A stretch of DNA of 19,381 nt, from the IMG/VR virus record IMGVR_UViG_2861069343_000003, positions 1 through 19,381 of that record. One strand, given 5' to 3'. Each line of letters begins with the position of its first letter. Positions within the stretch are counted from its first letter, which is position 1. Both the position numbers and the translations under genes were made by a program. Positions 1,901 to 19,381 of the stretch are shown here, piece after piece. The notes under the pieces are model-generated. The model ran no database searches. It saw nothing but the letters and a program-made list of their open reading frames with translations, and had not been told where the DNA came from. The DNA is from a virus (Duplodnaviria; Heunggongvirae; Uroviricota; Caudoviricetes).

Positions 1901-1963
1901 ATATGTAATCCATTAAGTCATTAAAATATATCGCAATAAACACACTATTTAAACTCACAAACC

Positions 1964-2004
1964 AGCCGCAGTATCCTGCCATGGCAAGTTGCTGCGGCTT
2001 TTTA
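1964..2004. terminator. bidirectional rho-independent terminator between the convergent RT operon and the prophage late genes
   Basis: 8-bp stem AGCCGCAG (1964-1971) pairs with CTGCGGCT (1992-1999), with an inner palindrome TGCCATGGCA. TTTT (2000-2003) follows on the + strand and GGTTTGTGAGTTT follows on the - strand. It coincides with the switch from AT-rich to roughly 50% GC sequence. Confidence 0.7.
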
Positions 2005-2007
2005 TGT

Positions 2008-2301
2008 TCAACGGATCAACAGCCAGATCAGAAGACACGCTACCATCGGCACAGCAAAATCCATCAGGCTTGCCACATCCCATGCGCGTGGATCAAAACC
2101 GCCCCACCACGGCATGTTAATCCGCTTGCCATGCCCGAACATTTCAATCCAGCGATATTATGCTTGGGTGTGTTCGCCCGCAATGAAGAACGTACAACTG
2201 GCTATCGCTCCGTAAACCCAGTTTCCGGTAAAAAGCCCCACCAGTATCTGCGCAGCCACAGCACAAAGTGCATGAAGGAAAGGTGTTATACCCATTTTCA
2301 T
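2008..2301 (-). pseudogene. small hydrophobic prophage membrane protein interrupted by an in-frame TAA (97 codons in total if read through)
   Basis: Hand translation of the - strand from ATG 2301 (or ATG 2295, with AGGA upstream) gives MKMGITPFLHALCAVAAQILVGLFTGNWVYGAIASCTFFIAGEHTQA. A TAA follows at 2158-2160. The same frame then continues YRWIEMFGHGKRINMPWWGGFDPRAWDVASLMDFAVPMVACLLIWLLIR to TGA at 2008-2010. Each half is under 60 aa, so neither appears in the ORF track. The + strand ORF 1981-2313 listed there is the antisense artefact. Confidence 0.55.
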
Positions 2302-2337
2302 CCTACCCAATAAAACGGGGCGCACAGCCCCTTAATA

Positions 2338-5300: not shown

Positions 5301-6039
5301 TTGCCGCCACTTTTGAAGCCGACGCATCCCGGGCTGAGGTGGCAGCTTCTGACGCTTTCGTGGTCGCGGTGGATGCAGAAGTGGCCGCAGATTTTTGTGA
5401 TGCTGCGGCATTCGTTTCTGACGTTTTCGCTGCACCGGCACTGGTGGCTGCCGCGCTTTTTGAAGACTCTGCAGCGGCAGCACTTTTTGATGCTTCAGTA
5501 GCCTTTGTTGATGCCGTTCCTGCGCTGGAAGACGCTGACTGAGCCGACGACGCGGCCTGTCCGGCTGACGTGCTGGCTGCGCGTGCGGAGTCCGCAGCAT
5601 CAGTCGCATGGGTTGCCGCCTCACGGGCTGATGTGCGGGCATCACTGGCTGACTTCTTCGCGGCTGCCGTGTTCTGTGCTACTGCGGACGCGTTACGCGC
5701 CACCTCTTCCACCATCAGTTCAAAGCGGCGCAGTGCCTCCGGACGGACATCATCCTCCGTCATGGCACCGAGAAAATCATTCAGCGTACCCGGTTGTGAG
5801 TCTTCATACACGGTGATGGTCCCGGCATGCGATGGCGGGAAGCCTTCCACCAACAGAATAACGCTGTACTGACCGTACTCAACGTCCATGCTGTAACGCC
5901 CGGCTTCATCCGGGTTTTCTGAGGCCACTGTGTTCACCACCACCGTGGTGCTGTTGCGCCTGGCCTTTAGCTGAATGGTGCAGTTTTGTATCGGCTTACC
6001 TGCGCCATCTTTCAGTACACCTGAAATCCGTACTGCCAT
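2338..6039 (-). CDS. stf: side tail fibre protein: lambda Stf-like N-terminus, divergent distal part and C-terminal S74 chaperone domain
   Basis: The N-terminal ~340 aa (MAVRISGVLKDGAGKPIQNCTIQLKARRNSTTVVVNTV...GRYSMDVEYGQYSVIL...TITVYEDSQPGTLNDFL, then the Ala/Ser-rich AAKTSETNA repeats) match lambda Stf (orf-401) as I remember it. The middle ~760 aa is beta-rich and unrelated to lambda Stf; it contains the tail-fibre motif GDVMSGDLDI. The C-terminus is an S74 domain. ATG at 6037-6039, preceded by GGGGGGA. Confidence 0.9.
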   Translation of the reverse strand: MAVRISGVLKDGAGKPIQNCTIQLKARRNSTTVVVNTVASENPDEAGRYSMDVEYGQYSVILLVEGFPPSHAGTITVYEDSQPGTLNDFLGAMTEDDVRPEALRRFELMVEEVARNASAVAQNTAAAKKSASDARTSAREAATHATDAADSARAASTSAGQAASSAQSASSSAGTASTKATEASKSAAAAESSKSAAATSAGAAKTSETNAAASQKSAATSASTATTKASEAATSARDASASKVAAKSSETSAASSAGSAASSATAAGNSAKAAKTSETNADNSAQAAADSQTASANSATAAKKSETNAKNSEAAAKVSETNAKASENKAKEYLDKVGGLVSPMTQYDWPVVTGNESFYIKIAKLSDPGSGNCHVTLMVTNAGNYGSPYGNIDFIEISARGLPSLLSADNVSRHLSIRRLGSTGLTDNNQMRYGLVKGDGFIEVWAFQRAFINGAKVAVLAQTARPELYIPDGFVKQTAAPSGYVESPVVRIYDQLNKPTKADLGLSNAMLTGAFGLGGSGISTNGKMSDVEILKALRDKGGHFWRGDRPTGSTATIYSHGSGIFSRCGDTWSAINIDYSTAKIKIYAGNDARLNNGTFSVNELYGSANKPSKSDVGLGNVTNDAQVKKSGDVMSGDLDILKETPSIRLKSAKGTAHLWFMNNDGSERGVVWSPENNESLGEIHIRAKNTKGESSGDFIVRHDGRVEARNLKITYKISAATAEFANTSTSSDNTTVSIKGSQHTPLVLTSNNTIKNLSIGFKVDDVDQKYLGIAGDGDLYFGSYSDHTKNSKVITQAKLDSGVTVGGKTTFSDLATFNAGMAGSIEPETIDNKTIDLNDLIIANTVAGSVKYYQCKTVAGGAYITNKPDGVSGNFLLRVESTRKTTGSDYAIMQTLIGSDTKRIYVRFVVNGSWTEWSQVVVSGWNQDVTVRSLTSTTPSKLGGGRVDVLGSTSDYSSMNCAVRGVDSTGTNSAWSVGTSKNTGKMLCLKNHRSSAQVLLNGDDGAVQLLSGTVNGATAQALTINKDEVNSTADLVIRKQTGTGNRFALLNSGNSELPVSIRVWGSSTRQNVFEVGTSAAYLFYAQKTTDGQNLTVNGSVNCTTLNQSSDRRLKENIEIIDNATDAIRKINGYTYTLKENGAHCAGVIAQEVEEAIPEAVGSFIHYGEELQGPTVDGNELREETRYLNVDYAAVTGLLVQVARETDDRVTSLEEENAELKQRLSAIEAALASK
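2341..2715 (-). other. intramolecular chaperone auto-processing domain (peptidase S74 type) at the tail fibre C-terminus
   Basis: The last 125 aa begin SDRRLKENIEIIDNATDAIRKINGYTYTLKENGAHCAGVIAQEVEEAIPEAV and end in a coiled-coil, LEEENAELKQRLSAIEAALASK. This is the typical S-D-x-R-x-K self-cleavage signature of endosialidase/tailspike chaperone domains. The Ser codon is at 2713-2715. Confidence 0.8.
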
Positions 6040-6050
6040 ATTCCCCCCAC

Positions 6051-6075
6051 AAAAAAACCCGCCTGAACCGGCGGG
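6051..6075 (-). terminator. rho-independent terminator downstream of lom
   Basis: The - strand reads CCCGCC-GGTTCA-GGCGGG followed by TTTTTTTG (stem 6058-6063 / 6070-6075, A-run 6051-6057 on the + strand). It lies 12 nt upstream of the stf start. Confidence 0.8.
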
Positions 6076-6103
6076 CTGTCATAACACTGTGTTACCTGGC
6101 TAA

Positions 6104-6703
6104 TCAGAATTTATAACCGACACCCACGATGAAACCGTCAGTGCGCCAGTCACCACTGCCGGAACCTTCATAAGCAATATCAATGGCCACGGATTCGGTC
6201 GGGTTAAACTGCACGCCAGCCCCCCACGCCAGAGACGTGTTGCTGTGGCGACCGTCATCACTTCCGGTCAGCACATCGTGCGTTTTCCCCTTGTTGTCAG
6301 TTACGCGGAGATAATCCCCGGAGAAAGTCGACACACGGCTGTAAGCCACACCCGCCATCGCATACGCGCTGAACCATTCATTCACGCGCACAGACGGCCC
6401 CGCCATCACGCTGAACCAGCGGTTACGCACGGAATCCTCATGCCAGCGGGTATCGCTGTAATGCGTTTTTTGCTCATCTTCAGCGTTGGCATAACTGAAT
6501 GACGTAATCAGCCCCAGCGTGTCCGTAAACTCATAACGGTATTTCACGTTAATCCCGTTCAGATTATCGCTGCCGGGAGCGTTCGTACGGGCATGAAGAT
6601 ACCCTGCGCTCAGTGTGGCCTGCTGCTCAGACGCCCATGCAGGCGCACCGGATACGGCCAGACAGATGGCTGCGGACAAAATGGCTGCACAAACTTTACG
6701 CAT
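6104..6703 (-). CDS. lom: Lom outer-membrane protein (Ail/Lom family beta-barrel), a prophage moron
   Basis: The 199-aa product MRKVCAAILSAAICLAVSGAPAWASE...SLAWGAGVQFNPTESVAIDIAYEGSGSGDWRTDGFIVGVGYKF is near-identical to lambda Lom as I recall it. It has a signal peptide ending AWA-SE and an SD GAGAGG before the ATG at 6701-6703. Confidence 0.95.
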   Translation of the reverse strand: MRKVCAAILSAAICLAVSGAPAWASEQQATLSAGYLHARTNAPGSDNLNGINVKYRYEFTDTLGLITSFSYANAEDEQKTHYSDTRWHEDSVRNRWFSVMAGPSVRVNEWFSAYAMAGVAYSRVSTFSGDYLRVTDNKGKTHDVLTGSDDGRHSNTSLAWGAGVQFNPTESVAIDIAYEGSGSGDWRTDGFIVGVGYKF

Positions 6704-6725
6704 AATTACCTCTCGCTTTTCTGCA

Positions 6726-6752
6726 ATAAAAAAGGCGCCAGAAATGGCGCCC
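6726..6752 (-). terminator. rho-independent terminator between J and lom
   Basis: The - strand reads GGCGCC-ATTTCT-GGCGCC followed by TTTTTTATT (stem 6734-6739 / 6746-6751). Confidence 0.8.
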
Positions 6753-6771
6753 GCATATGGGTTATGAAAAT

Positions 6772-9700
6772 TCAGCTAATCGTGATACCTGCTGTGGATT
6801 TCTTCATCACCACAACCAGCAAATCACTGATACTGGCTGTGGGATACCAGTCATTTACCAGCCACGCTGATACCGAAAACTCCAGCGTCATGTGACCGCG
6901 ACCAGCAGGCATATCAATAACACCTGTATAAACCAGCGTATTATCCAGCGCGGTACGGTTATAAATTTCAGCACCGTTTTTCTTCACTATCAGGCGGCAT
7001 GACGAATAAATATCGTTATTCTCCCGCTCATGTTTAGCGCCACGAAACGCCACCGCGGGAATAACAATCTGCCGGTCAAACGGCTGATCGTCATAAACCC
7101 TGACGGTAATGGTCCCTGATGGCCACCGCTCCGGTGCACGGGAGTCCCGGGGGAAAGCTTTGCCCACTGTTTTAACGAGATCGCCTTCAATCTGGTTCGC
7201 AGACAGTTTTCCCAGAACCCGACAGTTTTCATTTATCGTGACATTGTTGAGCGTCCCGGCGTTCGCATTCACACTGCCACTGATATCCGCATTTTTCGCC
7301 GTCAGTCGCCCGTCCGGTGTAAGGGAAAATACCGGAGGATTACCGCCGCTGGTAATGGTGGGAGCCGTCAGATATTTCAGGAACACTTCGTTCATGAATA
7401 TCTGATCGCCCTGACCAACAAACATCGGCTTTGTGTTGCCATTCGCAGGATTAATCATCGCAATCCTGTCTGCCGCCAGCAGCACCTGACTCTGCATGCC
7501 GTCAGGGGTGTTCTCAATACCGGCACCAATACCCGCGATATAAAGGCGTCCGTCCTGCATCTGCTGCAGCTTCACAGCCCACATGCTGTTCAGGTTATTA
7601 TTTGTATCAACCTGAACCTTCTGTATCTGCTGAATTGCCGCACTCTGGTCTTCCAGTTTCTTATTGACGGTCTGTGTGATTTCATTGCTGACATCCGTAA
7701 TGGATGTCCTGATTTCAGCCAGGTCAGGCGCAAGCTGACCGTTATCAATCTGCGTCCACAGCTCCTGAGCCAGATGGGTTTTCCCTATCTCGCCTTTGAA
7801 AAAATCCAGATAGCCGGATGCGTCATCACTCGGCTGACCAACAGCCTCCACGAATGCCGATTTGCCAACGGTGTTCACACTGCGAACGTAAAAATAATAA
7901 TTATGGCCCGGTTTGATATTGATACTGGCGGCTATCCAGTACAACGCCGTACCAAGATAGCGTGCTGTGGTTTCAACCTGCCTGATATCCGCAATCCGCT
8001 TTTCCGAGAACCAGAACTCAAACTGTACCGTCGGATCATAAACCGCAAGATGCGGCGTGGCGGTTATCTGAAAATAGCCCGGCGTCAGCTCAATCCGCGA
8101 CGGCGCTGCCGGTGCGGCAATCCGGAACGATACCGACGCCGGATCGCCCTGCTGCCCCCACGCATTTACTGCCCGGACTGTCAGCCTGTAGTTCCCCAGA
8201 GCCAGTTGTGTGAAGCGGTAAGTGGTTTCCGTCGTCCGGGCCGTGCTGACCAGCCGCTCACTGCCGTCATCCGCTGCCACGGTCAGGCGAAGCAGGAAGC
8301 TCACGCCCTTCACCACCTTCGGCGTGTCCCAGCGGGCCAGCACCTGGTATTCCCCGCTGTCTGCGGTGACTTCTGCGGTCAGATGCTGCACTGCTGGCGG
8401 CGTGACACCATTCACCGTGCCGCTCTGGTCGCCGTCAAAGTGCGCCCCGTTATCCACGATGGCCTCTTTTTCCGGTACATGCTGCACGGCAGTGATGGCA
8501 TACGTGCCGTCATCGTTCTCACGGATACTCACGCAGCGGAACAGGCGCTGGCGCAGCGTCGGCAGCTTCAGCCCCCACACGCTGTACTCGGCAACGCCGT
8601 CAGGAAGCCGGCTCACTTTCACCTTCACGCCGTCGGTGATGGACTGGACCTCCACGCTGACCGGATTGCCACTTCCGTCAACCAGGCTTATCAGCGTGGT
8701 ACCGGAGGATGGCAGCGTGATTTCACGGTCGAGCGTCAGCGTCCGGGTCTGGCTGTTCACCGCCAGCACGCGCCCGCCGGTGCTGATACCGGCATAGTCA
8801 TCATCGCAGATTTCAATGACATCGCCCGGTACATGGCGAAGCCCTTCAGCACCCACGCTGAAGTCCACGGTCTGCGTTTCCAGCAGCTCCGTTTTAATCA
8901 GCCACAGCCCGGCGCGGTGCGCCTGCCCCCGACTGGTACAGCCAAACGCATCCATCTTCGTGACGTTACGACCATAACGGGCAATGGCCTGCGAGTCCTC
9001 CACAAGCTCTGTTGCCGTCTCCCAGCCGTTATCCGGGTCAATCCAGTTCACTTCAACGGCATTATGGCGGTCTTTCAGGGCGCTGAAGCTGTAGCGGAAT
9101 GGTGCGCCATCATCCGGCATCACCACATTACTGCGGTTATAGGTCCACACCTTATCCGATGGTCGGTCCTGCACGAACGTCAGCGTCTGCCCGTTCCATA
9201 CCGGCATACAGCGCATCGCCGAGCAGAAATCACTGAGCACATCCCACGCCTTACGTTGTGTGGTCAGGTAAGCGTTACAGGTGATGCGCGGCTCCGTACC
9301 GCCAAAGCCGTCCGGCACCGACTGGTCGCAATTCTGGCCGATGACATACAGCGCCCATTTGTCCACATCCGCCGCACCGAGACGTTTCCCCATGCCGTAG
9401 CGCGGGTGGGTCAGCATATCCCACAGACACCAGGCCATGTTGTTGCTGTATGACGGTTTAAACGTCCCGTCCCAGATACCGCTGTATTGCCGCGTCTGCG
9501 GGTTATAATTCGACGGCACCTGCAGAATACGCCCGCGAAGATGATAATTACGGCTCACCTGCTGGCTGCCGAACTGCTCCGAATCCACCTGTACGCCGAC
9601 CAGTGCCGTGTTCGGGTAGCACTGTTTCACATCGATGATTTCGGTGTATGACGACCAGAGCGTTTTGTTCTGCAGCTGGTCTGTGGTGCTGTCCGGCGTC

Positions 9701-10251
9701 ATCCTGCGCATCCGGATGTTGAACGGGCGCGGCGGCAGATTATCCACCACTACCGAGGCCAGATACTGCGAGGTGGTTTTGCCCTTAATGGTGATGTCTT
9801 TTTCCGTCACCCAGCCACCGTTACGCTGTATCTGAACCAGCAGGCGGACTTCCGACGGATTCCGGTCCCCCTTTGAAGTGGTTTCCACCAGTGCCTGCAC
9901 ACCGAAGGTAAAGCGCAGACGGTCAATGTTTGCCGACGTGATGGTCCGGGTGATCGGCGTGTCGTATTTCACTTCCGTGCCCAGTACCGTCTCGGAACCT
10001 GATGATTCAAATCCCTCCGGCGGTGTCTGTTCCTGCTCACCTGCCCGGAACACCACCGTGACACCGGAGATGTTAGTATTCCCCTCACTGTCCAGCACCG
10101 GTGTACTGTTCAGCAGCACGCTTTTTAATCCATCCACCGGACCTTCAACCGGCCCTTCGCTGATGGCATCGATCACACTCAGCAACTGCGTGGACTTCAG
10201 GTTGTCCTTTGCTTCGCGCGGGGTATGCCCCTTACTGCTGCCTTTACCCAT
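6772..10251 (-). CDS. J: tail tip / host specificity protein J
   Basis: 1159 aa. The N-terminus [34 protein letters not shown] and the overall length match lambda J (1132 aa). SD GAGGA precedes the ATG at 10249-10251. Confidence 0.96.
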
Positions 10252-10270
10252 TCCTCACGCCCCATAAACG

Positions 10271-10293
10271 ATAAAACCGCCCGGAGGCGGTTT
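10271..10293 (-). terminator. terminator-like hairpin in the I-J intergenic region
   Basis: The - strand reads AAACCGCC-TCCG-GGCGGTTTTAT (stem 10276-10281 / 10286-10291). It sits inside the late operon, so Q-type antitermination probably reads through it. Confidence 0.4.
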
Positions 10294-10311
10294 CACATAA
10301 AACGTTTTTCA

Positions 10312-10953
10312 TCAGCGACCAATCACCACAACCTGACCACCGTCCCCTTCGTCTGCCGTGCTGATCTCCTGAGAAACCACGCGTGATCCCACGCGCATTT
10401 CACCGTACAGAACGGGCAGAACATTGCCCTGGGCAACCATATTATCCAGTGAAGAAAAATAGGTGTTCTGTTTGCCGTTATCCGTTGTCTGTGTGCGGGG
10501 GGTTTTGGGTTTAGGGGCCAGCATCTGTGCAACACCGCCAAGCGTCATACTGGCACCGAGAGAAAACAGCAGATTACTCGCCATAATTCCTACCCCCGGC
10601 ATCCATATAGCAACCGCCATAACAGCCGCCCCCAGCACAGCCTGAAACACACCGCCACTTTTGGCTCCTGCCAGACGCGGCACGATATGGATCACAGCAC
10701 CATTTGCCAGCGGTTCATTAAGACGGGCTGATAATTCCGTTTCACCTGTATCACGCCCGGCAATGCGTACCTGATACCAGCCGTCGCTCAGCTTCTGACG
10801 AAACGCCGGGAGCTGTGTGGCCAGTGCCCGGATGGCTTCAGCCCCCGTTTTCACACGCAGATCGATGCGGCGGCCAAATCGTTGTAAATCCCCGTAAAGG
10901 CAGATGCGCGCCATGCCCGGTGACGCCAGAGGGAGTGTGTGCGTCGCTGCCAT
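10312..10953 (-). CDS. I: tail tip assembly protein I
   Basis: The 213-aa product MAATHTLPLASPGMARICLYGDLQRFGRRIDLRVKTGAEAIRALATQLPAFRQKLSDGWYQVRIAGRD...QEISTADEGDGGQVVVIGR matches lambda I. It overlaps the end of K by 103 nt, as in lambda. Confidence 0.94.
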   Translation of the reverse strand: MAATHTLPLASPGMARICLYGDLQRFGRRIDLRVKTGAEAIRALATQLPAFRQKLSDGWYQVRIAGRDTGETELSARLNEPLANGAVIHIVPRLAGAKSGGVFQAVLGAAVMAVAIWMPGVGIMASNLLFSLGASMTLGGVAQMLAPKPKTPRTQTTDNGKQNTYFSSLDNMVAQGNVLPVLYGEMRVGSRVVSQEISTADEGDGGQVVVIGR

Positions 10954-11594
10954 TTGTCGGTATACCTCTCTCGTTTGCTCAGTTGTTCAGGAATATGGTG
11001 CAGCAGCTCGCCGTCGCCGCAGTAAATTGCGGCGTGATTCGGCACCGATGAACCAAAACAGCACAGCAGCACATCGCCCGGCTGTGCCGCTGACAACGGC
11101 ACCTGATACAGCCCCGTCGCCTCCAGATTATCCAGATAGAGATTCTGGCCGTTACGCCACCAGTCATCCTCACGATGAAAGTCCGGCATCTCAATCCCCG
11201 CCAGATGATAAGCATCCCGGAACAGTGTGTAACAGTCCGTCACACCGTGCTCAAAGCGCCGCCCGGTGAGATGCGGCACACAGCGGAACTTATGAATCGT
11301 CCCCCGGCAGACCAGCCACCACGGCAAATCACTCTGCACCTGCAGCCGCCGGTCGGCCTCACTCAGCCAGGGCAGACCACCGGGGTGGCTGTGGACCAGC
11401 GCCACAATCTCACCCTGCATTTCTGCCTGCAGCCAGTCTTCCGGCGACATACGGAAATACGCCTCCGGCTCACCGGAGATATTCACGCAGGGGAAATATC
11501 TTTCCCCCTCCGGCGTGCTTACCACGAAGCCGCACGACTCCGCTGGCGCACATCGCCGGGCGTGCGCCAGAATCGCTGATTCTGTCTGTGTCAT
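10851..11594 (-). CDS. K: tail tip assembly protein K (MPN/JAB plus NlpC/P60-like domains)
   Basis: The 247-aa ORF begins MTQTESAILAHARRCAPAESCGFVV and contains HSHPGG (JAB motif) and GVTDCYTLFRDAY (NlpC/P60 Cys), matching lambda K. The classical 199-aa lambda annotation would start at the internal MSPEDW. Confidence 0.94.
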   Translation of the reverse strand: MTQTESAILAHARRCAPAESCGFVVSTPEGERYFPCVNISGEPEAYFRMSPEDWLQAEMQGEIVALVHSHPGGLPWLSEADRRLQVQSDLPWWLVCRGTIHKFRCVPHLTGRRFEHGVTDCYTLFRDAYHLAGIEMPDFHREDDWWRNGQNLYLDNLEATGLYQVPLSAAQPGDVLLCCFGSSVPNHAAIYCGDGELLHHIPEQLSKRERYTDKWQRRTHSLWRHRAWRASAFTGIYNDLAAASICV

Positions 11595-11599
11595 GGGAT

Positions 11600-12082
11600 T
11601 TACTGCGAAAGTTTGTTAATGGAAAGGAAGCCGCCAAAGTTGCCGACGTTATTGCGGAACTTACAACCGCTCAGGCATTTGCTGCATTTATCCTTCGTGA
11701 TATCGGACGTTGGCTGGTCATATTCATCCGCGACAGCCGGACCGCTATAACCGCACTCGTCACCGCGATAGGTCCAGGTGCAGGTGTTGGCCAGCATGAT
11801 ACGTCCCGGAAAAACAGCGCCATCCGTTTCCGTCGGCGTGGACAGTACAAAGGAGGCACTCACCGCGCTCAGTTCGCTGCACTGCTCAATGCGCCAGCGG
11901 CTGATCACCTCCTGCTCCGGATCGGCATAACTGTTTCCGTTGACGAAGTTCACCGCATCCAGAAAACGGGCGTAAACATTACGCCGGACCACCGTTCCGC
12001 CGACCAGACTCTGCATATCTTCCGCCATCCCGGTGACCATACCGTACAGGTTAGAAACCGTCAGCGTGGGGCGCGTACCGCT
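11600..12082 (-). pseudogene. L: 5'-truncated minor tail protein L (about the last 160 of about 232 codons retained)
   Basis: ORF 11600-12040 (MVTGMAEDMQSLVGGTVVRR...FGGFLSINKLSQ) matches the C-terminal part of lambda L. The in-frame match continues upstream through TRPTLTVSNLYG to about 12079-12085. The frame then hits TGA at 12107-12109 and similarity is lost. No M, H, T, G, V, U or Z genes, and no head genes, follow. Confidence 0.85.
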
Positions 12083-12088
12083 CTTTTT

Positions 12089-12177
12089 ACAAAACAGAGA
12101 AGAGCATCACCGGACGACGGGCTCATAACCCAATCCATCCGGGCGGCAGTCACCGCAGGTGTTCTTCTCTGTTTTGT
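12089..12177. repeat. 89-bp unit bounded by perfect 15-bp inverted repeats, at the L truncation junction
   Basis: ACAAAACAGAGAAGA (12089-12103) is the exact reverse complement of TCTTCTCTGTTTTGT (12163-12177). The spacer is 59 bp and contains the direct repeat TCACCG twice (12107-12112 and 12150-12155). Confidence 0.8.
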
Positions 12178-12225
12178 GGAGAAACCAACCGACCTTGCAG
12201 GGTCGATATGATGGGGAGCAGCAAA

Positions 12226-12588
12226 ATGGCTAGCGAACGCAGTACTGATGTGCAGGCATTTATCGGGGAGCTGGACGGCGGCGTATTTGAAACCAAAATC
12301 GGCGCAGTTCTCAGTGAAGTCGCTTCCGGTGTGATGAACACGAAAACCAAAGGTAAGGTCTCGCTCAACCTGGAAATCGAACCGTTTGATGAGAACCGTG
12401 TGAAAATCAAACACAAACTCTCATATGTTCGCCCGACTAACCGCGGGAAAATTTCCGAAGAAGACACCACCGAAACGCCGATGTATGTCAATCGCGGTGG
12501 TCGCCTGACTATTCTGCAGGAAGACCAGGGACAATTACTGACTCTTGCCGGTGAACCTGACGGAAAACTCCGCGCAGCAGGTCATTAA
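12226..12588 (+). CDS. yfdP: YfdP-like prophage protein of unknown function
   Basis: The ORF track starts at 12208. ATG 12226 is preceded by GGGGAG (12213-12218) and gives 120 aa (MASERSTDVQAFIGELDGG...), the length I recall for K-12 YfdP. It sits immediately upstream of yfdQ, as in CPS-53. Confidence 0.6.
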   Translation: MASERSTDVQAFIGELDGGVFETKIGAVLSEVASGVMNTKTKGKVSLNLEIEPFDENRVKIKHKLSYVRPTNRGKISEEDTTETPMYVNRGGRLTILQEDQGQLLTLAGEPDGKLRAAGH

Positions 12589-12653
12589 TATCGTTCTTAA
12601 TTAACTGATTATTTATCTCATCACTGAATATCTTTATATAGTGAGGACTTATT

Positions 12654-13478
12654 ATGTCTCAGAACTTAGACGCAACCGCAATTAATCAAATCCATGCCCT
12701 TATTTCTGCTCAGGGTGTTAATGAAATTATCAGTAAAATTGGTGCCGATGCTGTGGCATTGCCTGAGAATTTCCGCATTCATGATCTGGAAAAATTTAAT
12801 TTAAATCGCTTCCGTTTCCGTGGTGCGCTTTCCACTGCCAGCATCGATGACTTTACCCGTTATTCTAAAGATCTTGCAGATGAAGGCACCCGCTGCTTTA
12901 TCGATGCTGATAATATGCGAGCCGTCAGTGTGCTTAACCTGGGTACTATTGATGAACCAGGTCACGCAGATAACACCGCCACTCTCAAACTGAAAAAGAC
13001 AGCACCGTTCTCTGCCCTGTTGTCTGTTAACGGCGAGCGTAACTCCCAGAAGTCACTGGCAGAATGGATTGAAGACTGGGCCGACTACCTTGTGGGCTTT
13101 GATGCTAATGGTGACGCCATTCAGGCAACAAAAGCGGCTGCGGCGGTCCGTAAAATCACGATTGAAGCAAACCAGACCGCTGATTTTGAAGACAATGACT
13201 TCAGCGGCAAACGCTCTCTGATGGAGTCTGTCGAAGCGAAAACCAAAGACATTATGCCAGTAGCATTTGAGTTTAAATGCGTTCCATTTGAAGGCCTGAA
13301 AGAACGTCCGTTTAAATTACGCCTCAGCATTATCACTGGTGATCGCCCTGTACTGGTTCTGCGCATTATTCAGCTGGAAGCAGTACAGGAAGAAATGGCT
13401 AACGAATTTCGTGATCTGCTTGTTGAAAAATTCAAAGACAGCAAAGTAGAAACCTTTATTGGTACTTTCACCGCCTGA
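12654..13478 (+). CDS. yfdQ: YfdQ-like prophage protein (DUF2303 family)
   Basis: 274 aa, the same length as K-12 YfdQ. SD GAGGA lies 7 nt upstream. Its position between the yfdP-like and yfdR-like genes supports the call. Confidence 0.75.
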
Positions 13479-13491
13479 TTTCATTACTGCA

Positions 13492-13514
13492 AATGCCCCT
13501 GCGGGGGCATTTAT
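13492..13514 (+). terminator. terminator-like hairpin after yfdQ (a weaker second hairpin lies at 13537-13560)
   Basis: AATGCCCC-TGC-GGGGGCATTTAT. The second hairpin is TCGCC-TGAT-GGCGA followed by GGGTTTTCTTT. Confidence 0.5.
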
Positions 13515-13605
13515 GGAAACGTAATTAACTCAATAATCGCCTGATGGCGAGGGTTTTCTTTAACCAAAATTCAGCGCGGTGCAGCGCATATACGTGGAGA
13601 ACAAA

Positions 13606-14142
13606 ATGTCATTTATTAAAACTTTTTCCGGGAAGCATTTTTATTATGACAGGATAAATAAAGACGACATCGATATTAACGATATCGCGGTTTCCCTTTC
13701 AAATATCTGTCGCTTTGCCGGTCATCTTTCGCACTTCTACAGCGTCGCCCAACATGCGGTTCTTTGCAGCCAGCTGGTGCCGCAGGAATTTGCTTTTGAA
13801 GCGTTAATGCATGATGCAACAGAAGCGTATTGCCAGGACATTCCCGCACCACTGAAACGCCTTCTTCCTGACTATAAACGGATGGAAGAAAAAATAGACG
13901 CCGTAATCCGTGAGAAATACGGGTTACCCCCGGTTATGAGCACGCCAGTGAAATATGCCGATCTCATCATGCTGGCAACCGAACGCCGCGATCTCGGACT
14001 TGATGATGGCTCTTTCTGGCCTGTACTGGAAGGTATCCCGGCAACAGAGATGTTCAAAGTGATTCCACTGGCTCCAGGCCATGCCTACGGGATGTTTATG
14101 GAACGTTTTAACGAGTTATCGGAGTTACGCAAATGCGCATGA
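13606..14142 (+). CDS. yfdR: HD-domain phosphohydrolase YfdR (5'-nucleotidase family; reported DnaA-binding prophage protein)
   Basis: The ORF track starts at GTG 13579. ATG 13606 follows GGAGA and gives 178 aa starting MSFIKTFSGKHFYYD, the length and N-terminus I recall for K-12 YfdR. HD signature residues are visible in AQHAVL and in ALMHDATEAY. Confidence 0.85.
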   Translation: MSFIKTFSGKHFYYDRINKDDIDINDIAVSLSNICRFAGHLSHFYSVAQHAVLCSQLVPQEFAFEALMHDATEAYCQDIPAPLKRLLPDYKRMEEKIDAVIREKYGLPPVMSTPVKYADLIMLATERRDLGLDDGSFWPVLEGIPATEMFKVIPLAPGHAYGMFMERFNELSELRKCA

Positions 14143-14495
14143 ATGTTTTCGAAATGGAAGGGTTTCTTCGCGGGAAATGTGTACCGCGAGATCTGAAAGT
14201 GAACGAAACAAATGCTGAGTACCTGGTACGTAAATTCGATGCGCTTGAAGCTAAATGTGCGGCACTGGAAAACAAAATAATACCAGTGTCAGCTGAACTA
14301 CCACCAGCAAATGAAAGTGTTCTGTTATTTGATGCTAACGGAGAAGGCTGGCTGATTGGCTGGCGTTCTCTCTGGTACACCTGGGGACAAAAAGAAACCG
14401 GAGAATGGCAGTGGACATTTCAGGTCGGGGACATTGAAAGCGTCAATATCACTCACTGGGCAGTAATGCCAAAAGCACCGGAGGCTGGAGCATAA
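14133..14495 (+). CDS. yfdS: YfdS-like prophage protein
   Basis: 120 aa, the same length as K-12 YfdS. The start overlaps the yfdR stop by 10 nt, with GGAG 8 nt upstream. The stop overlaps the next start (TAATG). Confidence 0.65.
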   Translation: MRMNVFEMEGFLRGKCVPRDLKVNETNAEYLVRKFDALEAKCAALENKIIPVSAELPPANESVLLFDANGEGWLIGWRSLWYTWGQKETGEWQWTFQVGDIESVNITHWAVMPKAPEAGA

Positions 14496-15115
14496 TGACC
14501 ACATTTACCGATAAAGAACTGATTAAAGAAATCAAAGAGCGTATCAGCAGCCTGGAGGTTCGAGACGATATTGAGCGCCGTGCTTATGAAATTGCTCTGG
14601 CATCGCTGGAAGAGGAGCCGGTGGCATGGCTACATTCAGACAATGGCTTAGGTATTCCAGCAATAACCAGGAGTAAAAACATTGCTGACAGTTGGTTATC
14701 AAAGGGCTGGTATGTTCAGCCGCTATATATAGCCAAGCCAGTGCCGGTGGTGCCAGATGCTCGTCCGACTTTAAATAATGGCATAGTCGGTTTTGATGAA
14801 GGCTGGAACGCCTGCCGCACCACCATGCTTCACGGTGTCAAACCTGTAAGCCAGACTTACAAGTTGAACAAGCTGTCTGACAACTCTCCGGTAACTCCGG
14901 ATGGTTGGATAAGCTGTAGTGAGCGAATGCCGAACGATAAACAATATGTTTGGTGTTGGGGTAAGTCTTACGGCTGGACTGAGTGCGATACCTTCGAAGG
15001 GTATTACGATTGTTCGAGAAACAAATGGTGGGCAGTTACTGACGATGGGGAAGAACCGGCATTGAAAGTAACCCACTGGATGCCGCTACCGGAGCCACCG
15101 CAGGAGGTGAAGTAA
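14495..15115 (+). CDS. DUF551-type prophage protein (YfdT-like, full length)
   Basis: 206 aa. The C-terminal Trp/Cys-rich part (GWISCSERMPNDKQYVWCWG...WWAVTDDGEE...VTHWMPLPEPP) resembles DUF551 as I remember it. It is coupled on both sides by TAATG overlaps. Confidence 0.6.
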   Translation: MTTFTDKELIKEIKERISSLEVRDDIERRAYEIALASLEEEPVAWLHSDNGLGIPAITRSKNIADSWLSKGWYVQPLYIAKPVPVVPDARPTLNNGIVGFDEGWNACRTTMLHGVKPVSQTYKLNKLSDNSPVTPDGWISCSERMPNDKQYVWCWGKSYGWTECDTFEGYYDCSRNKWWAVTDDGEEPALKVTHWMPLPEPPQEVK

Positions 15116-15309
15116 TGAACAACTTAATGACAACTAAACAAGTCGCCGACTTCTGTGGCGTTTCAGTATCGACAGTTCTTCGCTGGAACAGCGTAAACAG
15201 GAGAACTGGCCAGAAATATAGGCCTGACTTTCCAGATCCTGATATTAAATCCTGCCCCAATAAATGGGCATCACACAAGATATACAGGTTTGCGGGAGTT
15301 ATTGAGTAA
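15115..15309 (+). CDS. small HTH DNA-binding protein, AlpA/excisionase-like
   Basis: 64 aa. LMTTKQVADFCGVSVSTVLRWN is a typical AlpA/Xis helix-turn-helix. A strong SD AGGAGGTGA precedes it. It is the last gene of the early operon and faces the integrase end. Confidence 0.6.
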   Translation: MNNLMTTKQVADFCGVSVSTVLRWNSVNRRTGQKYRPDFPDPDIKSCPNKWASHKIYRFAGVIE

Positions 15310-15322
15310 TACGTATTAGTTC

Positions 15323-15387
15323 AGATGTGAGCTAACACATCTATGGCACAGAGCTAAACCTAATCTGACTGTCTACTCTGTGCCATA
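15323..15387. repeat. two adjacent hairpins between the convergent excisionase and 870-aa genes
   Basis: Hairpin 1: AGATGTG (15323-15329) / CACATCT (15336-15342). Hairpin 2: a perfect 12-bp stem TATGGCACAGAG (15342-15353) / CTCTGTGCCATA (15376-15387) with a 22-nt loop. Neither is followed by a U-tract in either direction. Confidence 0.7.
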
Positions 15388-15442
15388 AGTGGATGTTAAT
15401 TACTTCTTGGTATTTTAATGGTTGGATAGCTTATCAAGATTA

Positions 15443-18049
15443 CTAATCACCCTGTGATGTAAAATAAAACCAATGGTATTCTAGAGCTTGCATAGACAAC
15501 CCAACCTTGTCCCTCAATAGGACACCATTCAGCTCCTGATAGTACCTATCGCGCACCATATCACTTACGTGAATCCTTAAAGTCGCTGGGTCAATAGATA
15601 TTAGATAGTTATCAAAGAGACGATGTATATCAGTACGCAATAACAAGCCATTTTTTATATGATTATCCTTATCTCCTCTGTAAGGATAAATATGAGCTGC
15701 ATCAAGTACTGCTATTGTTTTGCACCCAGTAAAGGCACATTGCCCCCAAACGTTTATCAGTTTATTTCTGAAGTCGCTTTGACCTATACGTATCGTGACG
15801 TTTCTATTTATAACCTTTCGTTCATCAGAGTTATTTATTTTAAAACTCCCTGCTGTTGAAAAATCAAATTTTTCAGTCGCACTAAATATTTTTTTAGATT
15901 GTTTTTTTACTTTTGCAAGCTGTAAATCTGACTTTATTTGTAAGGGTTTTGAGTTTTCTTCATCAAACGATGGAAGTTGAAGTTCTTTAATCATGCTGGT
16001 AGATAGAAAATTTTTGTAACTCATTAACTTAAAATCTAATCCTCGCTCATAACGAATTTTAGAGAGCACTATTGCAGCTTCTTCAATGTATTTAAAACTA
16101 CTTTTCCTTTTATCCCATAATTGAGATAAACAATCTGCATTTAACCTATCATATCTTGATAAAATCTCACCCAAACTGCTGGCTTTAGCGGCGCTATCAT
16201 AGTTTATATACTGTTTTTCTTGGGAATCTTCAATGGAATCCAGAATAAAATTTATATTTACATGATTATCTGCATCTGCATCTGCAGATGCAGATGAATC
16301 ATTAAAATTATCGTAGTCAAGAGAATTTTGATCACTCCAAATAGGTAGCGATAGATAGCAAATATTATCAATGCTGTCGTCCACCAACATTAATTTTTGG
16401 TGGAGTAAAAATAATATAACTGAAGCTTCAAGGTAATTCATTTCTTGTGACAAGAATTTTTCTTTAAGCATATCAAAGTCATATTGTACGTATTCATTTT
16501 TTTTCTTTGATATTACGGAGAGTTGCTCTTCACTTAAGACCACTGGCCTGTCTTCTGATATATTACGAAGTAAGTATGAAATCAATTTTTTTTGATTTTT
16601 TTTAGAATCTTCAGACCTAGGAGGTTCGAGAAACACACCTTCAAGTCTATCCAATGCTTTAAGGCAACTTCCCGCAAGCCTAGTCATCGCATCTTTTCTT
16701 GTTTGAATTAGAGGATCTGCATAGATAACAAAATTATCCCCATTACGAATATGAGCTATTTCAAGCTGATATACATCTAGATTTTTTATAAGTTTAAATA
16801 CAAATCCGTATTTTTGCATTCTATGCAAAGTCAGTGTCGGTATAATATCTTTATTAGATTCTTCATCCAAATTATAGTTTTTTATTCTTTTGTACAACCA
16901 ATTTGTTGCAGAGGAAGAGCAAATTAACTCATTATATTGAATTTTACTATTTTTAGTTATCAGATTTAGAAGAGACATTCCAAACAATGCCTGAATACAA
17001 TCTACATAATAAGATATAGTTGTATAATCTGGATGTCCTTTATAGGGGAGAGAATCTATTGAAATAAAACCTGAGTTATAGAATCTCATAAAGTTTTTTT
17101 CAGATAACACCATGATCCCTAACGTAGTTCTGTCAATAACATTCTGTCCATTTTTTATTATCTCAAGTAGGCTTACTGAAGCTAGTAAGGAAATATAATG
17201 CGAACCTAAAGTAGCGAGATCTCTGTGCGAACTTATAGATCTATTTTTACCCTTTATTCTAGGGGGTATAAAAGCCTGGATTGAATTAAAGTTATTTGAA
17301 AAACCAAAAGCCATGTTCAATTCATTGTTGATGTAACACTCTTTAACATTCGGTTTCTGTACGCCACCCCATGCTGAAATAATACTATTAGATTTTAATA
17401 TTTGTTTTTTATTGTTTTTCAAATTCAAATGATTGCAAACTAAACTGGCAACATTATTCTCTGCTTTTTTTTTACTCTCACCACTTCCGATAAATATCTG
17501 TCCATTAGGAAGTGCTATTTCAGACTCATATATTGGTGCATGCTCGGTCCCACCAGCCAAGGTGGTTTTGTATGTAGGGATTATGTGTTGATGTCTTTGG
17601 AAATATTCATGTAAAAGAGTTTTTGGGGGTTTGCCAACAAATGACTCCGTAATAGAAAGGCTTTCAACAAAAAATTTGAGATGTAATATGATATCACAAT
17701 TAGATATCGCCCCTAGGTAAAATTGAAATATTTGAATTATCATAGAAGATGAGTTGATTTCTTCTTGTTTTACTCCAGGACCAAATTCTGTTTGTTGGTA
17801 GACTTTTGTTAAGGGAAAATTTGTAACAACAAGCTCTCTTAGTTTTTTCTTCAGGCTGCTAGTCATAATGCTTAAATTGTTACCATCCGCACCTTCTATA
17901 CTCAGAGACCGACAAGCGCAGATTAAATCCTCAAGCGACTTACCAACTGATACAGTTGCGTTAAACAATTCAGTATTGCAATTAAAAGATGAACGATGAC
18001 TTATCTGAATATAATTTTCGTTGATATGATTTATGAATAACTTATTCAT
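15443..18049 (-). CDS. large AT-rich cargo protein: two tandem (degenerate RNase III + dsRBD) modules, an unassigned helical/acidic region, and a C-terminal HNH (HNH_2-type) nuclease; candidate anti-phage effector
   Basis: The ORF track starts at GTG 18055 (870 aa; residue numbers below use that numbering). The GTG lies inside the SD GAGGTG (18058-18053), so ATG 18049 (residue 3) is the likelier start. The stop is TAG at 15443-15445. Domain evidence is given in the sub-features. A sigma70-like promoter lies upstream. Confidence 0.9.
   Translation of the reverse strand: [868 protein letters not shown]
15566..15802 (-). other. C-terminal HNH nuclease domain (HNH_2-like)
   Basis: [67 protein letters not shown] follows the pattern R-x-GQ-x-FR...C-x-x-TG...AAHI-x-P...NGL-x-L...H-x-x-FD that I associate with Pfam HNH_2. 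The candidate catalytic triad is H788, N802 and H811. Confidence 0.8.
16643..17233 (-). other. module 2: second degenerate RNase III-like domain (aa ~245-365) plus a divergent dsRBD-like segment (aa ~402-471)
   Basis: Written as this protein / Rnc. [18 protein letters not shown] / [39 protein letters not shown] / [37 protein letters not shown] / [16 protein letters not shown]. E38, E41, D45 and E117 align to R, A, S and Q; only D114 is kept. The dsRBD-like end is [21 protein letters not shown] / [21 protein letters not shown]. This match is weaker than module 1. The sub-feature coordinates begin at the [8 protein letters not shown]-equivalent motif. Confidence 0.5.
17426..17998 (-). other. 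module 1: catalytically degenerate RNase III-like domain (aa ~20-135) plus dsRBD (aa 142-210)
   Basis: By-eye alignment to E. coli Rnc, written as this protein / Rnc. [18 protein letters not shown] / [26 protein letters not shown] / [23 protein letters not shown] / [36 protein letters not shown] / [41 protein letters not shown] / [21 protein letters not shown]. The Rnc acidic residues E38, E41, D45, D114 and E117 align to T, F, V, Q and Q. Confidence 0.7.
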
Positions 18050-18081
18050 TTTCACCTCGTGTATTATTCGATAAAGATCAC

Positions 18082-18110
18082 ATTGTACGTGATATCAACT
18101 ACTTGCTCAA
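18082..18110 (-). promoter_or_regulatory. candidate sigma70 promoter for the 870-aa gene
   Basis: On the - strand: -35 TTGAGC (18110-18105), a 17-nt spacer, then -10 TACAAT (18087-18082). It lies about 30 nt upstream of the SD and ATG. A short inverted repeat ATCAC/GTGAT (18077-18081 / 18089-18093) brackets the -10. This is a motif-only prediction. Confidence 0.45.
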
Positions 18111-18157
18111 AGCAGATCGTCATATCCTATTGCGTTCTAGCTACGTAAACTATCCTA

Positions 18158-19381
18158 TCAGTTAGAGTCTGAGTTAGTACAAGTAACAATCGATTCAACT
18201 CTCTCCCACCATGCCTGGTAGGCTTTACGCTGTTCTTCTAGATAATCGCTCTTGTCATAAACTTGCCATACCCCTGGCAGTTTATGACCTAGCATTATTT
18301 CTGCAATATGAGGCGCAGTAAGATCAGAAAAGTTTGTTCGTGCTGTTCGTCTCAAATCATGAAGAGACCAATGAGGAAATTGATACCCCAAACGCCGCCA
18401 TGCGTACTGCATTAAATTGTAAGGCAGCGACTGCAATGATGTCCGACCAACTGGTTCCCTGCTTCCTTCCTTAGTAAAAAGCATATCGGAACCGTTGTTC
18501 ATAGAGATAACGTATTTTATAATCTCTTCAACCGGTTCAATAATGGGCCGCTTTAGCGGTTCGCCTGTTATATCCCCTGTCTTATGTCGTTCTGGTGGTA
18601 CAGTCCATATCTTATTAATGAAATCAAAATCGTCCACCTTGGCAGTAATTAGCTCTGAACTACGGCAACCAAAATGAAGCAATAGTTTAATGAAGGCCCG
18701 GTATTTAGGAACCATTCGAGAACCATCGATCGCAGCATAAAGGATTTTAATTTCATCATGTGTCAGAAACCGTTTCTTCTGACCTTTACGGATATCCATA
18801 TCTTTACCCGTGATATCCGACAGCGGGCGAGTTTCAATGAGCTTTCTCTTATACGCCCAGACATGGGCCTGCTTTGCGTTAATTAGCAATCGGTCTGCTA
18901 TTGCTGGAGTCTTAGTGCTAAGAGGCTCCAGGACTTCTAACCAATCATGCAATGTAGCTGCATCGTTAGGGATATTCCCGATTTTAGAGAACAGGTGCAG
19001 CTCAAACGAGCGGAGTATCTGTTCAGAACCTTTTTTATTTTTTACACAATATGCTTCATACCAGGCACGGATCACAGACTCTACCGTCATGGCTTCAGTA
19101 GCTTTTCGTTTTTCAGCCTGCTTGACCAATCGTGGATTACGGTTTGACTCGAGTTCACCACGGAGACGGATAACTTCTTCTCTGGCCTCTTTTAATCCAG
19201 TTGCCGGGTAAGTTCCGATATCAAGACGCTCACCTTTCCCTGCCCATTGATAACGATATTGGAACACTACGCGACCTTTCGGTGATACTCTGACAGACAA
19301 ACCATCACGATCGGATTTAACCAAAACCTTATCACGTTCCTTTCCAACGACTGAACGCAACCACGCATCAGACAGCGCCAT
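18158..19381 (-). CDS. tyrosine recombinase / phage integrase, P4-type (DUF4102-like N-terminal arm-binding domain)
   Basis: 407 aa, with the ATG exactly at the window edge (19379-19381). The N-terminus MALSDAWLRSVVGK...DGLSVRVSPKGRVVFQYRYQWAGKGERLDIGTYPATGLKEAREE is the typical P4-integrase N-domain. Catalytic signature residues are visible in FGCRSSE (Arg), HDLRRT (His-x-x-Arg), LGH (His) and VYD (Tyr). Confidence 0.95.
   Translation of the reverse strand: MALSDAWLRSVVGKERDKVLVKSDRDGLSVRVSPKGRVVFQYRYQWAGKGERLDIGTYPATGLKEAREEVIRLRGELESNRNPRLVKQAEKRKATEAMTVESVIRAWYEAYCVKNKKGSEQILRSFELHLFSKIGNIPNDAATLHDWLEVLEPLSTKTPAIADRLLINAKQAHVWAYKRKLIETRPLSDITGKDMDIRKGQKKRFLTHDEIKILYAAIDGSRMVPKYRAFIKLLLHFGCRSSELITAKVDDFDFINKIWTVPPERHKTGDITGEPLKRPIIEPVEEIIKYVISMNNGSDMLFTKEGSREPVGRTSLQSLPYNLMQYAWRRLGYQFPHWSLHDLRRTARTNFSDLTAPHIAEIMLGHKLPGVWQVYDKSDYLEEQRKAYQAWWERVESIVTCTNSDSN

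Follow-up and report, generated by a model that had tools for sequence, protein, structure and literature searches.

The DNA analyzed here (hereafter the window; 19,381 nucleotides, positions 1 to 19,381 of IMG/VR record IMGVR_UViG_2861069343_000003) comes from a defective lambdoid prophage that sits beside yjjG in E. coli and makes up the integrase-proximal end of it. It carries a large open reading frame (ORF) that ends in an HNH_2 nuclease domain and is predicted to begin with two catalytically dead RNase III-like domains. Tail genes J and Lom, yfdP/Q/R-like genes and two DUF551 genes come before this nuclease ORF in the window and a tyrosine integrase gene comes after it, with the nuclease gene occupying a variable slot between the integrase and DUF551 genes. 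Its GC content is approximately 31%, compared with 46–50% in the flanking phage genes, and it is found in 17 of 5426 complete E. coli genomes. The same protein is present in RefSeq as WP_086625076.1, starting two codons later from the ATG at 18049 (868 amino acids) and annotated only as "HNH endonuclease." Residue numbers used here count from the GTG start and equal the RefSeq numbers plus two, such that H788, N802 and H811 are RefSeq H786, N800 and H809.

The original prediction, made for positions 15566–15802 on the minus strand (residues 752–830 of the 870-residue ORF), was that this C-terminal segment retains an intact H/N/H triad together with every signature motif of HNH_2. The triad is borne out by direct reading of the three codons and by a match to Pfam HNH_2 (PF13391) that covers the full profile (positions 1–66, residues 773–822) with 50.8 bits against a cut-off of 21 (E 1.5e-13). 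The listed motifs are likewise all present (GQ-xx-FR, C-x-x-TG as CAFTG, AAHI-x-P, NGL, and H-x-x-FD), and only the spacing of the first needs correcting, as two residues separate Q and F where one had been given. Judged by profile score, the HNH_2 match and the dsrm match in the N-terminal region are far above chance, and the HNH_2 profile also matches 19 of 23 related proteins. The proposed survey of conservation revealed no loss of the triad among homologues: H788, N802, H811, and D815 are invariant in all 16 full-length members (25–48% identity), 23 invariant columns of their alignment fall in residues 744–815, and the pattern AHI.PYRG.KDN...NG.LLR.D.H.LFD is kept in every member that has a C-terminus.

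By sequence, the closest solved relative is the HNH domain of VcaM4I (6yex), matched with E 8e-6 by a full-length family profile and E 1.9e-9 by a profile of the C-terminal cassette; the HMMER alignment pairs VcaM4I H224, N241, D250, and D254 with H788, N802, H811, and D815, respectively. In VcaM4I, H224 activates the attacking water, N241 is structural, D250 is a metal ligand replacing the second His, and D254 takes the part of the ligand normally found just before the first His, with activity impaired by each of the substitutions H224A, D250A, and D254A (PMC7897488). The window protein differs in having the canonical His (H811) where VcaM4I has Asp as its second metal ligand, and because H788 is preceded by Ala, at a position occupied by Ser in VcaM4I, D815 is likely the other, second metal ligand. 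The HNH catalytic set is therefore predicted to be complete, with H788 as general base, N802 in a structural role, and H811 and D815 as metal ligands, and the residue comparisons support it as the only intact nuclease chemistry in the protein. NCBIfam NF045808 (PT-DNA_restrict) matches the HNH part only (20.5 bits against a cut-off of 180), and the matches in PADLOC-DB v2 are limited to two generic HNH models, PDLC04132 and PDLC03546, and to residues 715–836.

The N-terminus had been described as RNase-like, which proved too loose: it comprises two units, each an RNase III-like domain followed by a double-stranded RNA-binding domain (dsRBD) or dsRBD-like fold, predicted to pack as an intramolecular dimer in the manner of Dicer and Drosha. 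With the dsRBD excluded, residues 14–135 of copy 1 align by hhalign with RNase III residues 23–142 (probability 78, P 1.8e-5, 120 columns), and residues 252–395 of copy 2 align with RNase III residues 17–148 (probability 77, P 2.1e-5, 131 columns), both in the correct register for the RNase III signature and D..E motifs. The family profile picks up canonical bacterial RNase III over residues 18–212, thus including the catalytic domain as well as the dsRBD, and a profile search of the Protein Data Bank (PDB) aligns residues 101–212 with E. coli RNase III. NCBIfam TIGR02191 (RNase III) matches the dsRBD portion only, with 37 bits against a cut-off of 166. Copies 1 and 2 show no significant similarity when compared directly by hhalign (P 0.39), and because they are not detectably alike, an internal duplication is inferred only through the RNase III match of each.

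Structure prediction agrees with this assignment. An AlphaFold2 (AF2) model built from a 19-sequence alignment has a predicted local distance difference test score (pLDDT) of 75–93 over residues 1–570 (an input of four close homologues gave pLDDT 34, and the 19-sequence run was used) and reads, in order, as a helical domain, an alpha-beta-beta-beta-alpha unit, a second helical domain, a second alpha-beta-beta-beta-alpha unit, and further helices. With the predicted model as query, the best Foldseek match in the PDB is E. coli RNase III (7r97_A; 225 of 226 columns, E 1.5e-6, 20–22% identity), and matches of approximately 500 columns extend to DCL4, Drosha, and Dicer at 9–13% identity. When both domains are superposed at once, 255 residues of Giardia Dicer fit at 3.8 Å and 260 residues of DCL4 at 3.7 Å (AF2 model with a predicted template modeling score, pTM, of 0.47). 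The most fitting description of the N-terminus is an RNase III dimer in a single chain, of the order RNase III domain 1, dsRBD1, RNase III domain 2, and dsRBD-like unit 2, with the pairing of the two RNase III domains being predicted. The second dsRBD-like unit is assigned by predicted topology only, its hhalign match being weak (P 0.007); the equivalent segment in the sister family described below reads KTRLQERCQ, which is nearer the canonical dsRBD.

Neither copy carries the RNase III signature NERLEFLGD, and the metal-binding quartet is restored in no family member in either copy. In copy 1, the E. coli residues E38, E41, D45, D114, and E117 correspond in the hhalign register to N32, V35, K39, Q108, and Q111; the residues in these columns vary from member to member and are hardly ever acidic (at most one or two of the five positions in any member), and G-K recurs in place of G-D. 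In copy 2, the equivalents are R278, A281, S285, D352, and Q355, by which three of four metal ligands are gone, yet across 19 sequences A281, G284, and Q355 do not vary and D352 is conserved to 90% or more, and the set R/K-A-S/A-D/E-Q is also found in distant kinase-linked relatives. Residue by residue, the alignments confirm that both RNase III sites are dead, as originally predicted, although "degenerate" in the sense of variable applies to copy 1 only, copy 2 being substituted and strongly conserved; in copy 2, as judged from this pattern, selection has removed catalysis and not function. RNase III mutants of the E110Q class bind double-stranded RNA (dsRNA) and do not cleave it. The Foldseek matches include 1yz9, by its PDB title the Aquifex RNase III E110Q on uncut dsRNA, in which the Q is equivalent to the invariant Q355. 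Copy 2 naturally has Q at the E117 position of the non-cleaving RNase III mutants (E. coli E117, Aquifex E110; 1yz9, 1rc7). In dsRBD1, the elements that contact RNA (E150 in helix 1, H172 in loop 2, and K195-K196 at helix 2) are kept in nearly all members.

Between the dead module and the nuclease, the original prediction placed a single spacer (residues ~472–745), which did not hold up, as this region is a composite of a helical extension of the N-terminal module, two linkers, and a conserved 73-residue helical module (Table 1). Linker 1 has large insertions and deletions between homologues. Outside the HNH domain, conservation is highest in the module at residues 626–698, in which W647, A660, L664, R668, G672, D674, and L694 are invariant in 16 members; the module has no sequence match in Pfam, NCBIfam, or the PDB. 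Together with HNH_2 it also occurs in stand-alone proteins of approximately 300 amino acids in Thermomonas, Luteimonas, an Oceanospirillaceae metagenome-assembled genome, and Arthrobacter, of which the Thermomonas protein shares 32% identity over 232 residues (E 8e-34) with the C-terminal quarter of the window protein. The existence of these proteins indicates that the window protein consists of an RNase III-derived module fused with a small nuclease cassette that is complete in itself, and by its position the 73-residue module is a candidate auto-inhibitory or dimerization element.

To survey the family, we ran an exhaustive search of 1.84 billion cluster representatives, for which the query was a profile of the N-terminal 745 residues, chosen because HNH-only proteins would otherwise fill the matches. 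This search identified 19 proteins, including fragments, at E ≤ 1e-30; approximately 15 of the best matches are near-full-length (680–940 amino acids, 23–48% identity), and canonical bacterial RNase III proteins rank below the family members. A word-indexed homologue search found only four clusters (100, 85, 46, and 46% identity), whether a single protein or a 19-sequence profile was used. A scan of a genome collection, in which HNH_2-only relatives dominate, had no full-length member among the 80 loci kept and revealed the stand-alone proteins containing the module and HNH_2.

The ratio of nonsynonymous to synonymous substitution rates (dN/dS) was computed by the Nei-Gojobori method between the window gene and its 85%-identical relative only (dS ~0.32). 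All folded parts are under purifying selection and the linkers are near-neutral (Table 1). The earlier statement that selection maintains nuclease chemistry only at the C-terminus therefore stands for the chemistry; the N-terminus is nonetheless under purifying selection, with dN/dS of 0.11–0.34 for the folded parts, and from these ratios the dead N-terminal module is clearly maintained for some other function.

Table 1. Features of the nuclease gene and its surroundings in the window, and related loci on other contigs.
Feature	Position	Strand	Residues	Description	dN/dS
Whole ORF	15443..18055	minus	1-870	870 amino acids from GTG start	
RNase III-like domain 1	17636..18055	minus	1-140	hhalign against canonical RNase III domains	0.34
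dsRBD1	17426..17626	minus	144-210	Pfam dsrm E 2.6e-10; hhalign against RNase III dsRBDs P 4e-35	0.19
RNase III-like domain 2	16850..17338	minus	240-402	hhalign; pLDDT ~80-94	0.17
Second alpha-beta-beta-beta-alpha unit, dsRBD-like	16640..16846	minus	404-472	secondary structure in both AF2 models	0.11
Helical extension of sensor module	16346..16612	minus	482-570	pLDDT ~77-92; start aligns with sister family to residue 501	0.21
Linker 1	16181..16333	minus	575-625	acidic, low-complexity, length-variable; pLDDT <50	0.64
Conserved helical module	15962..16180	minus	626-698	73 residues; motif L..LW..R...F.; part of nuclease cassette	0.18
Linker 2	15833..15961	minus	699-741	pLDDT <50, disordered	0.76
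HNH_2 nuclease domain with leading helix	15446..15826	minus	744-870	Pfam core, residues 773-822 = 15590-15739	0.11
Predicted catalytic codons	15692-15694; 15650-15652; 15623-15625; 15611-15613	minus	H788; N802; H811; D815	read from sequence	
Promoter-like TTGAGC-17-TACAAT	18082..18110	minus		sigma-70-like consensus match in the 102-bp gap after the integrase gene; then GAGG and start codon	
Prophage tyrosine integrase	18158..19381	minus		context gene	
Stand-alone module + HNH_2 proteins	L021 7806-8720 (Thermomonas); L034 7875-8753 (Luteimonas); L008 275-892; L009 417-1028				
Kinase; receiver-Schlafen operon	L093 739-3885, 3882-4553; L094 197-3433, 3430-4317; L095 110-3346, 3343-4230			metagenomic contigs	

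The same N-terminal arrangement (RNase III domain, dsRBD, RNase III domain) is shared by three proteins of 1031–1078 amino acids, also matched in the exhaustive profile search, whose C-terminus is a histidine-kinase H-box (HDLKN) followed by HATPase_c. Profiles of the nuclease-family and kinase-family N-termini align by hhalign over 478 columns (probability 99.9, P 2e-36), and the match persists when copy 1 and dsRBD1 are removed (probability 97.6, P 4e-12), lending independent support to the sensor-linker-effector design originally proposed. The tandem module appears sensor-like, since it feeds a fused nuclease in one family and a two-component phosphorelay in the other, as would be expected if it were an input domain. 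For the two kinases examined, on three contigs, the kinase gene overlaps at its stop codon with the gene that follows, whose product is a receiver domain fused to Schlafen AlbA_2. The kinase has no match in PADLOC v2, the receiver-Schlafen protein has only a marginal PDC-M60B match (E 9e-4), and from its gene content the operon looks like an undescribed defensive two-component system. A further protein, P0029 (997 amino acids), represents a third architecture, in which the tandem RNase III-like module comes after an unrelated N-terminal region of approximately 590 residues; dsrm matches clearly at two places in the C-terminal part, and the protein has neither an HNH nor a kinase domain.

Members of the nuclease family occur in settings rich in defense genes or mobile elements. 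Relatives at 50–57% identity occupy the nin-region slot of two other lambdoid prophages, where the replication genes lie on one side and DUF968/antiterminator Q on the other. One distant member adjoins two GmrSD type IV restriction genes, one lies within an integrase-resolvase islet between dnaX and ligA, one adjoins MksE, DUF7281, and BrxR, and one adjoins PDC-M01A/B (PADLOC E 8e-203 and 6.5e-107) and a HamA and helicase pair (Hachiman). Across the loci examined the gene is an orphan single ORF without a methyltransferase, in defense islands or mobile elements. Neighbors differ at every locus examined and no partner gene is conserved, from which it follows that the nuclease gene would act alone; the 239-amino-acid genes upstream of the homologues P0002 and P0013 were considered as a conserved partner and rejected, being unrelated to each other. 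The gene upstream of P0002 (the 85%-identical homologue) encodes a separate HNH_2 protein (L004 2153-2872), a gene for a 396-amino-acid protein likewise precedes P0002, and an IS3-family transposase comes after it, and this locus may be a small nuclease island.

Among known systems, the window protein resembles most the type IV restriction enzymes in which a reader of modified DNA is joined to HNH_2, namely VcaM4I (EVE-HNH), TagI, and ScoMcrA. It shares with them the C-terminal placement of HNH_2, the arrangement of its catalytic residues and the GQ..FR leading helix, and both kinds are orphan single-ORF sensor-linker-nucleases located in defense islands or prophages. The window protein differs in carrying a 570-residue tandem of dead RNase III domains and dsRBDs, by homology a binder of RNA duplexes, instead of the reader and in having the extra conserved 73-residue module before the nuclease. 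No modified-DNA reader (PUA/EVE/SRA/YTH, SBD, or winged helix) was found by Pfam, NCBIfam, or PADLOC, and structure search of the model returned only RNase III and dsRBD folds. By its domain composition, therefore, the protein lacks the reader that defines these enzymes and is a putative new sensor within the sensor-fused HNH_2 kind of defense nuclease.

The comparison with RNase III enzymes is divided in a similar manner. Copy 1 with dsRBD1 aligns with bacterial RNase III (Rnc) over its full length; Rnc is a homodimer, whereas the domains of the window protein are covalently linked and lack NERLEFLGD and the metal ligands (four of four in copy 1, three of four in copy 2). With Dicer and Drosha the protein shares a dsRBD, and its predicted topology resembles that of their RNase III core. 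Its domains alternate, however, in an order that looks like the duplication of a bacterial RNase III monomer, the catalytic quartets are lost, a DNase-type HNH is fused, identity is low, and no helicase, PAZ, platform, or other further domain was found by Pfam. The mitoribosomal protein mL44 and plant RTL4/NFD2, which are among the structural matches, similarly keep the RNase III fold, with or without a dsRBD, in the absence of catalysis, although they are ribosomal or organellar single-domain proteins with no nuclease effector. RNase III folds are thus present in the predicted structure, while the residues present do not fit the enzymatic definition of RNase III. Among defense systems, the short Argonaute-HNH system SPARHA and Septu PtuB, and for the sister operon the Detocs-type two-component systems, are comparable in coupling a sensor of nucleic acid or infection to a nuclease or signaling output, as proposed here. 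SPARHA involves invader-triggered HNH activation (PMC12738770). The sensors of these systems differ (a guided Argonaute, an ATPase, and a TPR kinase), and they are multi-protein where the window protein is one polypeptide. A full-text literature search found no description of a dsRBD/RNase III and HNH protein or of the kinase/Schlafen operon, the nearest published item being a cyanobacterial fusion of HEPN, an active RNase III, and a dsRBD from 2013, which is a different protein (PMC3710099). By architecture, the ORF looks like a single-protein anti-phage nuclease of a previously undescribed type.

The domain identities, the loss of RNase III catalytic residues, the conservation of the HNH set, the modular reuse of the sensor, and the association with defense genes and prophages are computed results, from which we infer the dsRNA ligand, the switch mechanism, the DNA substrate, and the defense phenotype of the following proposal. 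The ORF would encode a single-protein, prophage-borne defense nuclease of the superinfection-exclusion or abortive-infection type, composed of a sensor, a tether, and an effector. The sensor (residues 1–570) would bind an A-form duplex without cutting it, since the acidic Mg-binding residues are lost while the RNA-contact residues of dsRBD1 and the conserved non-catalytic valley of copy 2 are kept, and its most likely ligand would be long dsRNA made during phage infection. The effector cassette (residues 626–870, the helical module with HNH_2) would be joined to the sensor by a flexible linker. In VcaM4I, the isolated HNH domain (residues 179–309) is a dimeric, non-specific nuclease whose toxicity prevents cloning, and a linker helix together with the sensor domain auto-inhibits it (PMC7897488), which is a direct experimental precedent for an HNH effector, toxic and auto-inhibited, in the window protein. 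By analogy, RNA binding by the sensor would relieve auto-inhibition or bring two HNH domains together, after which DNA of the phage, the host, or both would be cut. We lean, by a little, toward this package as a whole, a dsRNA-gated, auto-inhibited HNH DNase through which the lysogen would be protected from superinfecting phages; that the specific ligand is dsRNA is a more tentative proposal, for which we would give somewhat less than even chances.

Several observations weigh against this proposal. Sequence support for each RNase III copy is moderate (hhalign probability 77–78), Pfam has no match, whether to an RNase III model or any other, for residues 1–140 or 211–465 (the latter covering copy 2) even at E 10, and the packing of the pseudo-dimer derives from one AF2 model (19 sequences, pTM 0.47). 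The second dsRBD-like unit is without the canonical GPxH and KKxAK RNA-contact motifs, and the HNH domain itself is poorly modeled (pLDDT 36–68). The family is rare, and PADLOC-DB v2 contains no system-specific model for it, such that defense is suggested by gene neighborhood only. Moreover, E. coli already has dsRNA from antisense transcription that is cleared by RNase III (PMC7373196), and a dsRNA trigger would consequently need a threshold or a length preference.

The same domains could be arranged to a different end, with the dead module, in the manner of a type IV reader domain, tethering HNH to sites where an RNA duplex or RNA-containing duplex is joined to DNA, such as R-loops, primer RNA on replicating phage or plasmid DNA, or convergent transcription complexes, where nearby DNA would be cut selectively and without general toxicity. 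The parallel with reader and HNH_2 enzymes such as VcaM4I (E 1.9e-9 for the HNH part; PMC7897488) favors such targeting. The long flexible linkers would suit a tether, and the gene is an orphan without a methyltransferase, found in defense islands beside the type IV GmrSD genes. However, dsRBDs and RNase III recognize RNA-RNA A-form helices through 2'-OH contacts, and the use of the same sensor on a histidine kinase in the sister system is a better fit to signal detection, so that we consider targeting unlikely. Still less probable, in our estimate, is that the HNH domain took over the cutting and made the protein a dsRNA-guided ribonuclease against phage or host transcripts. Some HNH nucleases, for example colicin E9, cut both RNA and DNA, and the module should position an RNA duplex; against this, the nuclease cassette also exists alone without an RNA-binding domain, and two disordered linkers of approximately 45–50 residues part the sensor from the nuclease, an arrangement that does not fix the active site at the valley where RNA would bind.

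The end-to-end resemblance of copy 1 and dsRBD1 to E. coli RNase III could instead be that of an integrated decoy, which would mimic the host enzyme and detect not RNA but phage proteins that bind or modify RNase III, such as kinases and inhibitors. T7 phosphorylates RNase III, and the conserved non-catalytic residues of copy 2 could be a protein-binding surface. A pure protein decoy would need none of the E/H/KK contacts of dsRBD1 that are conserved across the family, and it should follow the RNase III of one host, whereas identity to the host enzyme is low and both the family and its sister are spread over highly varied contexts and metagenomes; we regard the decoy as very unlikely. Least probable of all would be a function outside defense, either as a selfish homing-type HNH endonuclease or as a prophage housekeeping nuclease with incidental RNA-binding domains. 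HNH genes are common selfish elements in phages, the GC anomaly and patchy distribution would fit this origin, and the closest phage matches to the HNH part are small phage HNH proteins. Unlike homing endonucleases, however, the protein has 870 amino acids with a conserved 570-residue sensor under purifying selection; its genes occupy accessory slots and not essential phage modules, occur outside prophages as well, beside GmrSD, Hachiman, BrxR, and PDC-M01 genes, and encode the HNH subtype of type IV restriction.

Extending the proposal of a dsRNA-gated nuclease to the sister operon, the tandem dead RNase III/dsRBD module may be a bacterial pattern-recognition receptor for dsRNA, a non-catalytic counterpart of the Dicer/Drosha core with at least two outputs (a fused HNH DNase, and a kinase signaling to a receiver-Schlafen protein), a generalization that we put forward as possible though rather doubtful. 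If it is true, bacteria, like eukaryotes, would use dsRNA as a pathogen-associated signal in their antiviral immunity. Known reader and HNH nucleases sense modified DNA, and in this protein two dead RNase III domains, paired as in Dicer and accompanied by a dsRBD predicted to bind RNA, would stand in place of the reader; were the ligand dsRNA, a single protein would link dsRNA sensing directly to DNA destruction in bacteria, and the kinase/Schlafen operon would be further evidence of infection signaling by dsRNA in bacteria. A single-chain RNase III pair, usually deemed eukaryotic (Dicer/Drosha), would also exist in prokaryotic mobile elements, and a dsRNA-gated nuclease is a possible practical use.

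Upstream of the nuclease gene, the integrase gene ends at a distance of 102 bp, and the sigma-70-like site in this gap suggests that the nuclease gene may be expressible from the lysogen independently of the integrase gene; the site is a consensus match only, and such matches are fewer in the region than in its shuffles. For the homologue P0008, both contigs that have upstream sequence show a 62-amino-acid ORF approximately 30 bp before the gene (L088 5528-5716; L089 422-610), and this ORF has no equivalent in the window.

With regard to the prophage itself, at window ~11588–12600 minor tail protein L is marked as truncated in the annotation of the identical region of strain AR437, and its neighbors on the opposite strand are a truncated hypothetical gene and the yfdP/Q/R-like genes. 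As tail protein L abuts these genes, the stretch from the tail genes to the integrase end lacks the modules for head, lysis, and replication. In another prophage at the yjjG site (strain 2014C-3011, one locus inspected), the slot before the integrase holds an unrelated gene of 460 amino acids on the opposite strand (L002 6407-7789), whose product has no Pfam or PADLOC match, making it a second cargo gene not identified by profiles in the same yjjG-site hotspot. This locus is the one inspected from 35 other E. coli genomes in which the match to the query is confined to its first 98 bases, the junction after the DUF551 genes.

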